Part shown: in pieces, positions 38,650 through 43,582 of the stretch | How the letters are laid out: each line of letters begins with the position of its first letter | Position numbering within the stretch: position 1 is the stretch's first letter | From: an uncultured Armatimonadales bacterium | Lineage (GTDB): Bacteria > Armatimonadota > Armatimonadia > Armatimonadales > Capsulimonadaceae | DNA length: 52,828 bases | Assembly: GCA_964246575.1 (NCBI GenBank) | Contig: CAXTRL010000001.1 | Span: forward strand, 1 to 52,828 | Direction: 5' to 3' | Made by a program: the position numbers and the translations under genes | The notes under the pieces: generated by a model | Databases searched by the model: none | The model's input: only the letters and a program-made list of their open reading frames with translations | Told to the model about the DNA's origin: nothing

Positions 38650-41600
38650 ATGCCAAGAATCTTTGACAACATCGAGACGCCCCTCCTTTCCGCTTTGCAG
38701 AAGACGCTGGGGCATTCTGAGCGGGCTGACTTTTGCGTCGGGTACTTCAACCTGCGTGGCTGGCGATACCTGGACAAACACATTGAAGAATGGCCTGGCG
38801 GGGAAGGGCACTGCTGCCGCCTGCTGGTCGGGATGCAAAAAACGGATCATGATGACCTGAAAGCGGCGCTAGGCGTCGGCACCGATGATGAAATGGACAA
38901 TGCCCGTGCGCTGGAAAAAAAGCGCGAACTGGCGCGGGAGTTTCGCCAGCAGCTTATGGTCGGCACCCCCAGCGACGCGGACGAAGCAGGGCTGCGGCGG
39001 CTGGCACACCAGATCACCGACGGCAAGCTAACCGTGAAACTTTTCCTTAGCCACACGCTTCATGCCAAGCTGTACCTCATGTTTCGCCCCGATCCCGATA
39101 ACCCGCGCACAGGCTACGTCGGCAGCAGCAACCTAACATTCTCCGGGCTGTCCGGTCAAGGTGAACTCAATGTAGATGTGGTGGACCACGACGCGGCCTG
39201 CAAGTTGGCAAACTGGTTCGATGCCCGCTGGGAAGACCGCTGGTGCGTGGACATCTCGCAAGAACTCGTGGAAATCATTGAGGAAAGCTGGGCGCGAGAG
39301 GCGCTCATCCCACCTTATCATATCTACGTCAAAATGGCATACCATTTGTCCCAAGAAGCGCGGTCGGGGCTGGCCGCATTCCGCATCCCAAAAGTCTTCG
39401 GCAACACGCTCTTTGAGTTTCAAGAAGCGGCGGTCAAAATTGCAGCGAGGCACTTAGACAAGCGCGGCGGTGTGCTGATCGGCGATGTGGTGGGCCTCGG
39501 CAAAAGCCTGATGGCGACGGCGCTGGCGCGGATGTTCGAAGACGAGTTCGGCATGGAGACTTTGATCCTTTGCCCCAAAAACTTGGTGCCGATGTGGGAG
39601 CATTACCGGACGGAATACGGCCTACGCGGAACCGTGCTGTCGGTGACGAAAGCCCGGACCAAACTGAAAGACTTAAAGCGTTACAAGCTGGTGATCTTGG
39701 ATGAAAGCCATAATTTCCGCAACCGTGAAGGAAAAACATACAAAGCGGTTCGGGAATACATCGAGCATAACGATAGTCGGTGCATTTTGTTGTCAGCTAC
39801 GCCTTACAACAAAACATTCCTGGACCTATCAAGCCAGCTTCGACTGTTTGTCCCTGAAGACAAAGACTTAGGGATACGGCCTGAGCGTCTTCTGCGTGAT
39901 ACCGGAGACGTCGTCTTCAATATGAAGTATCAGTGCTCGCCCCGCTCGCTGGCTGCCTTTGAGAAAAGCGACTATGCCGAAGACTGGCGTGAACTCATGC
40001 GGCTGTACATGGTGCGCCGCACGCGGGGCTTTATTCTCGAAAACTATGCCCAGATGGACCCAAAGACGGAGCGAAAGTACCTGACATTCGCCGACGGTAC
40101 GCGCAACTATTTTCCCGTTCGCGTTCCGAAGACACTTAAATTTGACATTGACCCGCAATACGCCAGCCTTTTTTCCTCGGACGTGGTGGACATCATCAAT
40201 GGCCTGCACTTGCCCCGTTACGGCCTCGGCAACTATGAGGCGCAGACGCCTGACAAGCCGCCGACAACAGCGGAAGCGGCGGCGCTCAAAGACCTCGGAC
40301 GGGCGGGCAAGCGGCTAATGGGATTTTGCCGCACAAACCTGTTCAAGCGCCTGGAGTCCAGTGGGGAAGCGTTCATTCTGTCGGTAGAGCGCCATATTCT
40401 CCGCAACTTTGTTTTCCTTCATGCGCTTGAACATGGCCTTCCTCTTCCCATCGGTCCGCAGGATGCCGCGCTTTTGGACACGCGCACGGCGGACGACGAC
40501 GCCGCCGACACTCAGCAGGACTTTGAAGACGAGGATGCACCGGATGGCGGAAAGCCATCCGGTGACCCTGCACCCGTCAGCAGCATTCGGACCGAGGCGG
40601 ACTTTCAGCAGCGGGCAGCAGCAGTGTATGGCCTCTACGCGACAGAGCAAAAAAAGCGGTTCAAAGCCTGGCTCCCGCCTAGGCTGTTTCGCAAGACTCT
40701 CGCACGGGACTTGCGGGAAGACGCGCACGCGCTGTTTCAAGTGCTGGCACGATGCAATGATTGGGAAGCGGGCAAAGACGCCAAATTAAGTGCGCTCCGT
40801 GACCTTTTGGCACGGCAGCGGCCCAATGATAAAGTGCTCGTATTCACGCAATTTGCCGATACCGCCGCTTATTTAAACCGGGAACTGCGGGAGCGCGGCA
40901 TCACGAAGATCGCCGTCGCCACAGGCCAATCGTCCGATCCCTTTCTGCTGGCGTCGCGCTTCTCACCAGAAAGCAATAATCGCCGCCGCGAGATCACCCG
41001 TGATCAGGAACTGCGGGTGCTGATCGCGACGGATGTTCTCAGTGAAGGGCAGAATCTTCAGGACTGCTTCGTCATTGTCAACTACGATCTCCCTTGGGCG
41101 ATCATTCGCCTAATCCAGCGGGCGGGGCGTGTGGACCGCATCGGCCAAAAAGCCGAGGAAGTCCTTTGCTGCTCATTTTTGCCCGCCGAGGGGGTCGAAA
41201 AGATCATTCGGCTGCGTGAGAGGGTTCAGCATCGCCTCAAAGAAAATCAAGAGGTCGTCGGCTCGGATGAAGCCTTCTTTGAAGATGACCAAAATCAGGG
41301 CTGGCTACGCGGGCTGTACGACGAGTCGGCGGACCTGAACGGTGACCCTGACACGGAAATTGACTTAGCTTCGTACGCTCTCGCAATTTGGAACAACGCC
41401 GTCAAAAACAATCCCAGCCTGAAAAAGACCGTGGAAACGCTGCCGTCTGTGGTGTATTCCACGAAACTCCACATCCCGTCGCCGAACGAGCCAAACGGAG
41501 CACTGGTTTATATGCAGACAGGCGACGGCACGGATGCCCTGGCCTGGATGGATTCGCAGGGACAATCAGTGACGCAGTCTCAGTACACGATTCTGCGGGC

Positions 41601-42040: not shown

Positions 42041-43582
42041 ATGACATCGCGACCCGCAGAACTTTTACGCTCCGGTGATTTAGCCCGACTTTTTATTGAT
42101 GGGCTGGGCTGGGACCAAAATGCACGGCCTCTTCCGGTGACCATCGTTGAGATCGGCGTCGACACCCACCGGACGTTTACGTTCCGTCTCGCAGGGATTG
42201 CTCAAAAGCGGGGGGCACAGGTGTTTTTGTGTCCGCCCGACGAATATGGACGGATTCTAGGTCAAAAGACGCGGCGACTGATCCAGGACCAGGTGAAACG
42301 CGCTGCTCACCACAACGTGATTGTCTTCACGGGCGCGGACCGGAGGGTGCAGGTTTGGCAATGGGCCGAGCGGCAGGCAGGCGAGCAGTCAATGCGCGTG
42401 TACGAGCACAGCATCGGCAGCACCCTGAAGGAGGCGGCACTCCTCGCTCGCCTTGCCGCGATCACGTTCGGCAGCAATGAAGAGGCGGAACTCACCCTAA
42501 CGGATGTGGTGCGCCGCTTGAAGTCCGCCTTCACGGATGACCACGGCCCTATCCAGCGTGGCAGGCATGGGCGCGACGGCCTGCGGGCTTATAATCTAGC
42601 CGAACTAGATAAGGGAATTCAGTTTTGGTGGGAACAGGTTTTGCGTGAGCCGCGCATGACGGCGGAACAAGAGTATCCACTTGCCTGCGCCATGCAGAGC
42701 GGCGACGCACAGGCGCGAAACCGGATGATCACGGCTCACTTGCATCTAGTTGCTCGAATTGCGTGGCGCGTGGCAGGCAAATACGGTTGTTCCCTCGATG
42801 ATTACTTCGACTTGGTTCAGACGGCTAATTTGGAAATGATGCGCTTGGCCCCTGGGTTTGACCCGAACGAAGGGGTGCGCTTTCAGACCTTTTTGTGGCC
42901 GCGCCTTCTGAAAACGCTGGAGCGGATTTTGGCGGGCGAAGAGGGACCGATCCCGATTCCACGCTACATCTTGGACGCGCTGCCGAAGTTCTCGGAGCGC
43001 CATGCCGCCGCCGAAGATCGCCTCACTCATCAACTCGGACGGATGCCGTTCGAGTCTGAAGTCACAGACCGCCTGGCCGCAGAATATCAGGTGCCGCCTG
43101 AGAAAATCGCTCGCGTTCTTTTCATTCAGGAGGCCATGCTGTCATGGGATGTGCTGGTGGCCGAACTGCACGGTGCTGAACAGGATGCAGTTGAAGAGGA
43201 ATGGAAGACGGAGGAGGCACCGTCGGCTTTCGCGTTGATGATTGACGGCAGCCATCATCAAGCCCCCTCAGAGGCCGCGATAAATATGGTGCGGCGGGAA
43301 CAGCTTGAGATTGTACTTGGCAGCCTGACCCCGCGTGAGCGGGACGTCCTCTGGATGCGTTACGGCTTCGCCGACGGGTTTATGCACACTTTAGAAGAGG
43401 TCGGTCAGCATTTCGCCGTCACCCGCGAGCGTGTTCGCCAGATTGAACTGCGTGCTCTCGAAAAACTGCGACGCATGGGACCGGTCTCCGTTAATGAAAG
43501 ATGCGAGTTGGTCGCTGCTCCCCTGCTCAAACGGCCCCTGATGAACCAGGTCAGCGCCGACGACGCGGACGATGCCATTTAA
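42041..43582 (+). CDS. sigma-70-family protein (regions 2 and 4) fused to an unassigned ~190-aa N-terminal domain
   Basis: Region 2 is [61 protein letters not shown]. Region 4.2 is [43 protein letters not shown]. The N-terminus is [27 protein letters not shown]... Confidence 0.88.
   Translation: [513 protein letters not shown]

Follow-up and report, generated by a model that had tools for sequence, protein, structure and literature searches.

What does a sigma factor do when its gene directly follows that of a nuclease-helicase, and do two such genes make up a defense module of their own? This question is raised by a 52,828-nucleotide (nt) stretch of bacterial DNA (contig CAXTRL010000001.1; hereafter, the window), in which a preliminary description had singled out two co-directional open reading frames (ORFs) separated by 22 nt: gene 1, of 1122 amino acids (aa), joining a phospholipase D (PLD)-type nuclease to a SNF2 helicase, and gene 2, of 513 aa, joining a sigma-70 moiety to an N-terminal domain unlike any sigma region. 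Both ORFs are present with this spacing and these lengths. They are the surviving part of an operon of three genes, which encode the helicase, the sigma fusion, and a DNA methyltransferase. The helicase and the methyltransferase constitute a widespread, restriction-modification-like two-gene core, to which the sigma fusion is an optional and previously undescribed addition.

The local pair is the remnant of a three-gene operon

Eleven loci (L001–L011) were fetched through full-length homologues of gene 2 (P0002–P0011, 31–65% identical to it; some are the same protein on different contigs), and in all 11, as well as in L063, L067, and L086, the genes come in the order helicase, sigma fusion, methyltransferase. 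In L001–L011, the PLD-SNF2 proteins consist of 1123–1167 aa and the methyltransferases of 704–1305 aa (typically ~1100). Gaps of 10–30 nt between genes are suggestive of a single operon. The proposal that gene 1 and gene 2 form a conserved, seemingly co-transcribed pair in a restriction- or defense-type module is thus borne out, the helicase lying directly upstream of the fusion in each of these loci. The module is not, however, the two-gene unit originally envisaged but one of three genes, of which the methyltransferase had been overlooked because an IS1-family insertion sequence (IS) deleted all but 29 of its codons here. The remaining codons are 86% identical to the start of the L001 methyltransferase (tblastn), and the match ends at the IS1 inverted repeat; tblastn with the methyltransferases encoded in the related loci found no further methyltransferase fragment anywhere in the window. 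Because the IS1 element at 43680–44459 lacks a target-site duplication, an IS-mediated deletion is likely. The remnant and its boundary with the IS therefore identify the locus as a three-gene operon whose methyltransferase gene was deleted by the IS. The accessory segment, 8.3 kb long, is indeed bracketed by IS, as had been noted: this element and a second one of the same family at 34615–35415 are both complete and are 76% identical to each other. With its methyltransferase removed by IS1, the local copy of the system is probably inactive for restriction.

All the HKD and SNF2 motifs that had been read in gene 1 are present (Table 1), and the Pfam domains PLDc_2 (aa 83–194), SNF2-rel_dom, and Helicase_C were matched above their cut-offs. 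The best PADLOC model for this protein is the generic 'HKD+Snf2' profile (5e-47). Over its full length, gene 1 is 89% identical to the L001 helicase and 52% identical to WP_011153866 from the Synechocystis plasmid pSYSX, and it scores 2301 bits against the family Hidden Markov Model (HMM) made in this work. Having one HKD motif per chain, gene 1 would need to dimerize to form an active site, as is known for PLD-family nucleases such as Nuc and BfiI.

Table 1. Features of the locus, in window positions
Feature	Position	Strand	Basis
Second IS1-family element (InsA zinc ribbon + DDE_Tnp_IS1), with terminal inverted repeats; left edge of the accessory segment	34615..35415	+	
Gene 1, PLD(HKD) nuclease-SNF2 helicase, 1122 aa; restriction ('Res-like') subunit of the core system	38650..42018	+	
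Single HKD catalytic motif of gene 1, HAKLYLMF (aa 138–145) ... GYVGSSNLTFSGL (aa 155–167)	39061..39150	+	PLDc_2, RE_NgoFVII PLD domain (Pfam)
SNF2 motor core of gene 1: motif I GLGKS (aa 282), II DESH (aa 351), III SAT (aa 382), VI QRAGRVDRIGQ (aa 823)	39493..41148	+	
Gene 1/gene 2 intergenic spacer, exactly 22 nt	42019..42040	+	
Gene 2, N-domain-sigma-70 fusion, 513 aa	42041..43582	+	
N-domain of gene 2, aa 1–165; conserved motifs LF..LGWD, A.KRG, C64, WQW, EH, EE	42041..42535	+	
Sigma regions 1.2–2.4 of gene 2, aa 187–312; diverged; R288 at the E. coli W434 position	42599..42976	+	Pfam, alignment
Sigma region 4 of gene 2, aa 414–480; -35 recognition helix TRERVRQIE invariant	43280..43480	+	Pfam Sigma70_r4
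Remnant, first 29 codons of an MmeI/Eco57I-type N6-adenine methyltransferase gene	43593..43679	+	tblastn
IS1-family element with terminal inverted repeats and no target-site duplication, in place of the methyltransferase gene	43680..44459	+	

A widespread helicase-methyltransferase core

A scan of species-representative genomes with the N-terminal domain of gene 2 (hereafter, N-domain) yielded 80 loci, in which genes were assigned by local HMMs and which belong to many phyla, with Desulfobacterales, Nitrospira, Chloroflexota, Poribacteria, Planctomycetota, Acidobacteria, and Alphaproteobacteria (for example, Sphingopyxis, Mesorhizobium, and Roseovarius) among their sources. A PLD-SNF2 gene lies directly upstream of the methyltransferase gene in 70 of them, seven are cut by a contig end, and three have no helicase, so that the pair is found in 70 of the 73 assessable loci. 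The sigma fusion is encoded in 7 of the 80 loci. Thus, the helicase-methyltransferase pair is a widespread restriction-modification-like two-gene core, and the fusion, which had been placed at the center of the system, is an optional add-on to it and an undescribed component. The window fits this scheme, with gene 1 belonging to the PLD-SNF2 family of the core and the methyltransferase remnant following the fusion.

The third gene of the related operons matches the Pfam families MmeI_hel/DUF7814, MmeI_Mtase, and Eco57I, and, from end to end, the PADLOC profile REase_MTase_IIG (996 bits). Neither core protein belongs to a curated NCBIfam family, there is no specific model for the pair in PADLOC or NCBIfam, and we found no description of the helicase-methyltransferase pair or of the sigma fusion in the literature; the assertion that this is not a named system accordingly stands.

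One member of the core has been studied in part. The pSYSX plasmid of Synechocystis PCC 6803 bears the same pair, namely, the helicase WP_011153866 and the methyltransferase slr6050 (M.Ssp6803IV), which scores 963 bits on the methyltransferase HMM made here; a VapBC pair occupies the middle slot between the two genes. slr6050 was assigned to the asymmetric site GAm6AGGC, via REBASE and by elimination rather than by direct genetics, and its knockout never segregated (Hagemann et al., PMC6105098). Such non-segregation is the behavior expected for the methyltransferase of an active restriction system, and an active pair would account for the failure to delete slr6050.

The middle slot can also accommodate other proteins with an N-domain. 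P0142, which combines an N-domain with an unrelated C-terminus, is encoded between the helicase and methyltransferase genes in L093, and P0253, with an N-domain and tetratricopeptide repeats (TPR), is encoded in L092 directly after an upstream ORF that is cut by the contig end and whose identity as a helicase is only assumed. Among the slot proteins, the N-domain thus stays the same while the C-terminus varies. The C-terminus of P0142 is not a cryptic sigma factor, as hhalign matches the N-domain only. Nor does the sigma moiety replace the recognition domain of the methyltransferase: the methyltransferases of sigma-bearing loci are complete and match the family HMM over its entire length.

Two further genes recur around the core. 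A DprA/Smf-like gene lies downstream of the methyltransferase gene in 29 loci (within L012–L091), and a gene with the Schlafen AlbA_2 and HATPase_c_4 domains occurs in 10 loci, among which L006 and L007 have it as a fusion with the methyltransferase.

The N-terminal domain of the fusion is shared with the methyltransferase

The N-terminal ~157 aa of the methyltransferases encoded next to the gene 2 homologues match the N-domain of gene 2 at 21–38% identity (tblastn). Over an alignment of ~165 aa, the fusions and methyltransferases have in common LF.EELGWDR, A.KRG, a Cys, hhF.D, Q.WQW, (R)EH, and EE..LTL, and aa 8–165 of gene 2 match positions 11–157 of the REase_MTase_IIG profile, which is labeled 'type IIG restriction enzyme-methyltransferase'. 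By these sequence comparisons, the N-domain of gene 2 and the N-terminal domain of the system's own methyltransferase are paralogues. The preliminary description was thus right that this domain is not a sigma region, given that no Pfam family matches it and no fold in the PDB does so significantly, but not that it is foreign. Its suggestion that the domain links the sigma moiety to the system appears likely, the N-domain being common to the fusion and the methyltransferase.

An exhaustive profile search identified 1077 N-domain representatives (50% clustering); the best 150 of these comprise 75 methyltransferases of ~1100 aa and 27 N-domain-sigma fusions, the rest being mostly fragments. The best match among the species-representative genomes is 44% identical. 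A word-indexed search, with only two matches, had suggested extreme rarity of the domain, which the profile search proved wrong.

The AlphaFold2 (AF2) model of the N-domain alone is confident (predicted local distance difference test 89, predicted TM-score 0.85) and has a mixed alpha/beta topology of two helices, three strands, one helix, three strands, and three helices. This topology, with two three-stranded meanders, does not fit sigma region 1.1 or the N-terminal helical bundle of PglX, and nothing matches it. An MmeI-like or inactivated PD-(D/E)XK nuclease, a guess prompted by the hhF.D...Q.W pattern, was set aside as a minor rival, the confident model having no significant match in fold or family. 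According to the conservation table, the N-domain has many invariant polar residues (K56, E122, H123, E148, and three Trp).

In a neighbor-joining tree of N-domains (13 sigma-type and 81 methyltransferase-type; no bootstrap), all 13 sigma-type domains fall on one side and the methyltransferase-type domains on the other, a pattern consistent with the sigma fusion having originated only once, by duplication and fusion. The methyltransferases encoded in sigma-bearing loci are dispersed over this tree, implying that the fusion was lost or transferred repeatedly. In one lineage (L003/L007), the N-domain of the methyltransferase lacks K56, C64, and E122 and scores 67–73 bits, compared to 112–157 bits elsewhere; the N-domain of the fusion retains these three residues and, in this single lineage, may have taken over the function of the N-domain.

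In the database gene call for gene 2 (P0001, 453 aa), the start codon lies 60 codons after the ATG at 42041, a choice that would remove the conserved LF..LGWD motif. The homologous fusions (region 42041–42220) back the longer ORF starting at 42041 over the P0001 start.

The sigma moiety is constrained and mosaic

The identification of the C-terminal half of gene 2 as a sigma-70 factor is firm. Gene 2 scores 35 bits with Sigma70_r2 and 62 bits with Sigma70_r4 (Pfam cut-off, 24 each) and 76 bits with TIGR02937 (cut-off, 43), aa 181–478 align to RpoD-type NCBIfam models, and the AF2 model matches the sigma chains of RNA polymerase holoenzymes with E-values of 1e-10 to 1e-13 (Foldseek). The region 2 and region 4.2 strings that had been recognized by eye lie at aa 257–290 and aa 450–477, respectively. 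Region 1.1 is absent, and in the model a 20-aa low-confidence linker separates the N-domain from a region-1.2-like helix. D257, L258, and Q260 of the core-binding motif in region 2.2 and T461-R-E-R-x-R-Q467 in region 4.2 are invariant in the fusions.

The fusions form two clades, one RpoD-like, which includes the window, and another from Planctomycetota. R288, at the position of E. coli W434, is invariant in the window's subclade, whereas other clades retain the W434 equivalent. Conservation in the window's subclade is mosaic: region 4 is 73–77% (window) and 84–87% (L011) identical to housekeeping sigmas labeled Armatimonadetes or Capsulimonadaceae, whereas identity to housekeeping sigma is about 30% in region 2 and about 25% in region 3 (overall, about 25–31% for regions 2 and 3); of the 109 reference sigmas, 6 have names available. 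The mosaic persists between fusions with distant N-domains: the window and L010 proteins are 37% identical in the N-domain, 40% in region 2, and 75% in region 4.

Between the window and L001, the fusions are 65% identical, with 0.24 nonsynonymous (dN) and 1.6 synonymous (dS) substitutions per site; dN/dS is about 0.15, and the fusion is therefore a real gene constrained by purifying selection. For the helicases of the same two loci, dN is 0.065 at a similar dS, so that the nonsynonymous rate of the fusion is ~4 times that of the helicase.

At their C-termini, the fusions of the window's subclade have a conserved acidic tail, D.(D/E)..(A/C)I-COOH (43559–43579 in the window, aa 507–513), with the variants DDADDAI, EDGESCI, DCDAAI, and DAESAI. 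The tail is not found in housekeeping sigmas and is reminiscent of the C-terminal docking tail of the single-stranded DNA-binding protein.

Comparison with known systems

The core resembles Type III and Type ISP restriction systems (EcoP15I Mod/Res, LlaGI) in that an N6-adenine methyltransferase with its own recognition region acts on one strand of an asymmetric site (GAAGGC in the Synechocystis member) and the restriction partner is a superfamily 2 motor with a nuclease domain, two such motor-nucleases probably meeting to cut. It differs in having an SNF2-type motor with a single-HKD PLD domain, where those systems have PD-(D/E)XK or Mrr nucleases, and an MmeI/Eco57I/PglX-like methyltransferase with an extra, unclassified N-domain. 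We know of no Type III or ISP system with a sigma-factor subunit.

With Type IIG enzymes (MmeI/Eco57I), the methyltransferase shares a helical spacer, a gamma-class N6-adenine methyltransferase domain, and a C-terminal recognition region in one chain of ~1100 aa, as well as a 6-bp asymmetric site; the methyltransferase and recognition domains are found in the third gene of the related loci and are reduced to 29 codons in the window. Unlike in those enzymes, however, the N-domain matches neither MmeI_N nor another nuclease family, has no significant Foldseek match and no D..ExK, and a PLD-SNF2 gene nearly always accompanies that of the methyltransferase. Since no nuclease signature is found in the N-domain, the 'type IIG' label is doubtful.

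An architectural parallel of gene 1 is found in the type 2 of the systems related to bacteriophage exclusion (BREX), termed BR systems or the Hma family, in which a fusion of an HKD nuclease with a Swi2/Snf2 helicase is the effector and is accompanied by an N6-adenine methyltransferase; the defining protein of BR systems is a DUF499 AAA+ ATPase, to which type 2 adds DUF3780 (Rakesh and Krishnan 2026, PMC12839542). Gene 1 is such an HKD-Swi2/Snf2 fusion, but DUF499 and DUF3780 are absent from the Pfam gene lists of L001–L011 and L093, no such conserved neighbor family occurs across the 80 loci, and no sigma component has been described for BR systems. Class 1 of the defense island system associated with restriction-modification (DISARM) differs as well: the DrmD model yields 126–141 bits (cut-off, 610), and neither DrmA nor DrmB (DUF1998) is encoded in the neighborhoods of L001–L011. 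The same holds for BREX, with 52–54 bits for the PglX models (cut-off, 500) and no PglZ or BrxC in L001–L011.

Membership in MZA fails too, so that type-2 BR/Hma, DISARM, BREX, and MZA were each rejected for want of a defining feature. MzaA, too, is encoded in a defense operon and extends a sigma-70-family protein by a large N-terminal part that is not sigma, but the MzaA model NF041931 matches gene 2 with 98 bits (cut-off, 800) and in the sigma part only (aa 210–479), the N-terminal extensions are unrelated, and the partners MzaB-E are absent from the window and from the neighborhoods of L001–L011. The existence of MzaA nevertheless corrects the view that CalpS, of the CalpL/CalpT/CalpS pathway of type III clustered regularly interspaced short palindromic repeats (CRISPR) systems, is the sole precedent for a sigma factor in defense; a further example is the RpoE-type sigma of type III-E CRISPR systems. 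CalpS and the RpoE of the type III-E Craspase are free sigmas of the extracytoplasmic function type that separate anti-sigma proteins sequester until proteolysis releases them. A sigma factor held by a defense complex as its transcriptional output is also the reading that we favor for the fusion, which differs in that its sigma moiety is group-1/2-like and covalently fused to a system-specific domain, and in that the system is restriction-modification-like, with no CRISPR genes. Among restriction-modification-like systems, we regard both the pairing of the two core proteins and the accessory sigma subunit as new.

Proposed mechanism and alternatives

Judging from the architecture of the proteins and from the Synechocystis data, the methyltransferase would recognize an asymmetric site and mark one of its strands, the SNF2 motor would translocate at unmarked sites, and two single-HKD PLD domains would come together for cutting, much as in Type III and Type ISP systems. 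The 165-aa N-domain may serve as a system-specific plug that joins a protein to the complex of motor-nuclease and methyltransferase. The fusion would have arisen once, by duplication of this plug onto a group-1/2-type sigma factor without region 1.1, and its sigma moiety may still bind the RNA polymerase core and a host-type -35 element. With the N-domain docked and the sigma moiety bound to RNA polymerase, the fusion would physically couple the restriction complex to the transcription machinery. By analogy with CalpS and MzaA, a tethered, complex-gated sigma would most likely autoregulate or provide a transcriptional output; a less likely role of the fusion is to bring the nuclease to RNA polymerase. 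Taken as a whole, namely, a three-gene operon remnant, an N-domain plug, and a sigma factor coupling restriction to transcription, this is the explanation that accounts best for the data, and our confidence in it is evenly poised.

Several observations weigh against it. Most systems do without the fusion. The N-domain has no significant fold match in the PDB or BFVD (Foldseek) and no sequence match in the PDB, and its invariant residues would be no less compatible with a catalytic or ligand-binding site than with a docking surface. The sigma moiety may not be a working sigma factor: the Pfam scan of gene 2 gave no region 3 match, and the melting aromatics of region 2.3, Y425, Y430, W433, and W434 in E. 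coli, are V, F, P, and R in the window, and in its subclade Y425, W433, and W434 are replaced by V, P, and R. No shared promoter motif was seen upstream of the sigma-bearing operons or of separately transcribed fusion genes, promoter-like sites upstream of these operons are not above the shuffled expectation, and no conserved candidate regulon gene was found near the related loci. Finally, the site of slr6050 was assigned by an indirect route.

The alternative that fares best concerns the local copy alone, rather than the function of the family. The pair might be a decaying remnant without a present function, the two ORFs simply having escaped mutation since IS1 removed the methyltransferase and so inactivated the system. 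This is a real possibility, although we lean against it. Only 29 codons of the methyltransferase are left and the window has no other copy, the IS-mediated deletion itself is likely given the lack of a target-site duplication, and frameshifted copies occur in L002, L016, L028, and L035; yet both ORFs are full length with all their motifs intact, and the lineage is under purifying selection, though this mostly predates the IS event.

Alternatively, the N-domain could be a nuclease or another enzymatic effector, which the sigma part would aim at promoters or at RNA polymerase. The N-domain-TPR protein would then be an effector-sensor pair of the same kind, and the REBASE-derived 'type IIG' label implies a nuclease. 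The domain occupies the position that the nuclease has in MmeI-type enzymes, in keeping with its match to the REase_MTase_IIG profile, its charged residues K56, E/H 91–92, D98, E122-H123, and E148 are conserved across both protein types, and the weak, non-significant Foldseek matches include PD-(D/E)XK proteins (Cas4 SSO0001, a RecB-family exonuclease, and UL24). Nevertheless, we consider an enzymatic N-domain unlikely: it matches no nuclease fold or family significantly, it has no D...(D/E)xK pattern but Q.W at the place where ExK is expected, and a second nuclease would be redundant beside the dedicated PLD nuclease that is almost always its partner.

Slightly more doubtful is an integrated decoy, in which region 4 mimics the housekeeping sigma of the host as bait for phage anti-sigma or RNA-polymerase-hijacking proteins and, once the bait is bound, the N-domain turns on the PLD-SNF2 nuclease independently of methylation. 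Phage anti-sigma and sigma-appropriation proteins, T4 AsiA for example, usually target region 4 of the housekeeping sigma. The mosaic conservation described above speaks for a decoy, and its persistence between distant fusions points to selection rather than recency. The host is probably a member of Armatimonadota, PurM being 77% identical to a protein from an Armatimonadetes metagenome-assembled genome (MAG), its only named match. Loss of the Trp pair involved in melting would stop a decoy from working as a sigma factor, TPR, which is typical of phage-protein sensors, occurs in the same slot, and the fusion evolves at nonsynonymous sites ~4 times faster than the helicase. However, region 4 of the Planctomycetota fusions (L063, L067, L068, L071, L081, L086) is only 28–42% identical to the reference housekeeping sigma, and these fusions retain FSTYA..W.RQ in region 2 and so look like ordinary alternative sigmas. 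Furthermore, the comparison involved the 109 mostly unnamed references and not the host's rpoD, and no phage partner of the fusion is known. We therefore regard the decoy as quite improbable.

Finally, the stand-alone two-gene DNA-sensing module originally proposed, with the sigma factor activating the nearby Fic gene or three small ORFs, is very improbable, even though the Fic gene is SoFic-like and a homologue lies directly upstream of the helicase gene in L089, given that the methyltransferase is the conserved partner, that no shared promoter motif was found, and that only 2 of about 90 related loci have Fic and none has the small ORFs, so that nothing supports a role of these genes as a regulated output.

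Other features of the window

The Fic/DOC gene (36203–37348, minus strand) also encodes DUF4172 and matches the PADLOC SoFic model at 4e-40. Its homologue in L089, a Sphingomonadaceae MAG, is encoded at 1749–2843 and is 57% identical; Fic may be a recurrent neighbor in defense islands. The three small ORFs (35397–35983, plus strand) are tandem paralogues of 61, 84, and 87 aa with the common motif EDIE.IMNKIIDARVEQKLAEQ (direct repeat D3); neither a Pfam match nor a homologue in any related locus was found for them.

A large serine recombinase is encoded at 13759–15408 (minus strand), beside a 7-kb stretch (14000–21000) of lower guanine-cytosine (GC) content, 0.45–0.54 compared to about 0.60 in the flanks, which is probably an integrated mobile element. 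In L003 and L007, serine recombinase genes likewise closely precede the operon. A 97-nt segment is present three times (27068–27164, 28600–28696, and 28933–29029), within or just before the HlyD-family gene of a resistance-nodulation-division efflux operon (27196–33754), and encodes the zinc-ribbon-like pattern Y.C..C.M...DPMDGG.L.PV. Upstream of purM, at 5401–5582 and 5981–6127, there are two nearly perfect GC-rich inverted repeats with arms of 50–52 nt that are 94–98% complementary; these look like repetitive extragenic palindromic elements or terminators. Proteins with a prepilin-type N-terminal methylation motif, one of them with DUF1559, are encoded at 4358–5326, 46446–47276, and 47336–47872, in line with an Armatimonadota- or Planctomycetota-like host.

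Implications

The core described here is an apparently unnamed, widespread two-gene restriction-like system that current tools mislabel as a solitary type IIG enzyme. The small unclassified domain common to its methyltransferase and to its optional partners (sigma, TPR, and unknown) appears to be a modular adaptor of a kind undescribed for restriction systems. The decoy, if real, would provide a restriction system with a second, methylation-independent means of sensing infection and would be the first guard or decoy sensor built from a sigma factor. More generally, a sigma factor hard-wired to a restriction complex would link DNA surveillance with RNA polymerase, whether as a signaling output, a targeting device, or a decoy, and any such role, if true, would be a new mode of restriction-modification operation.

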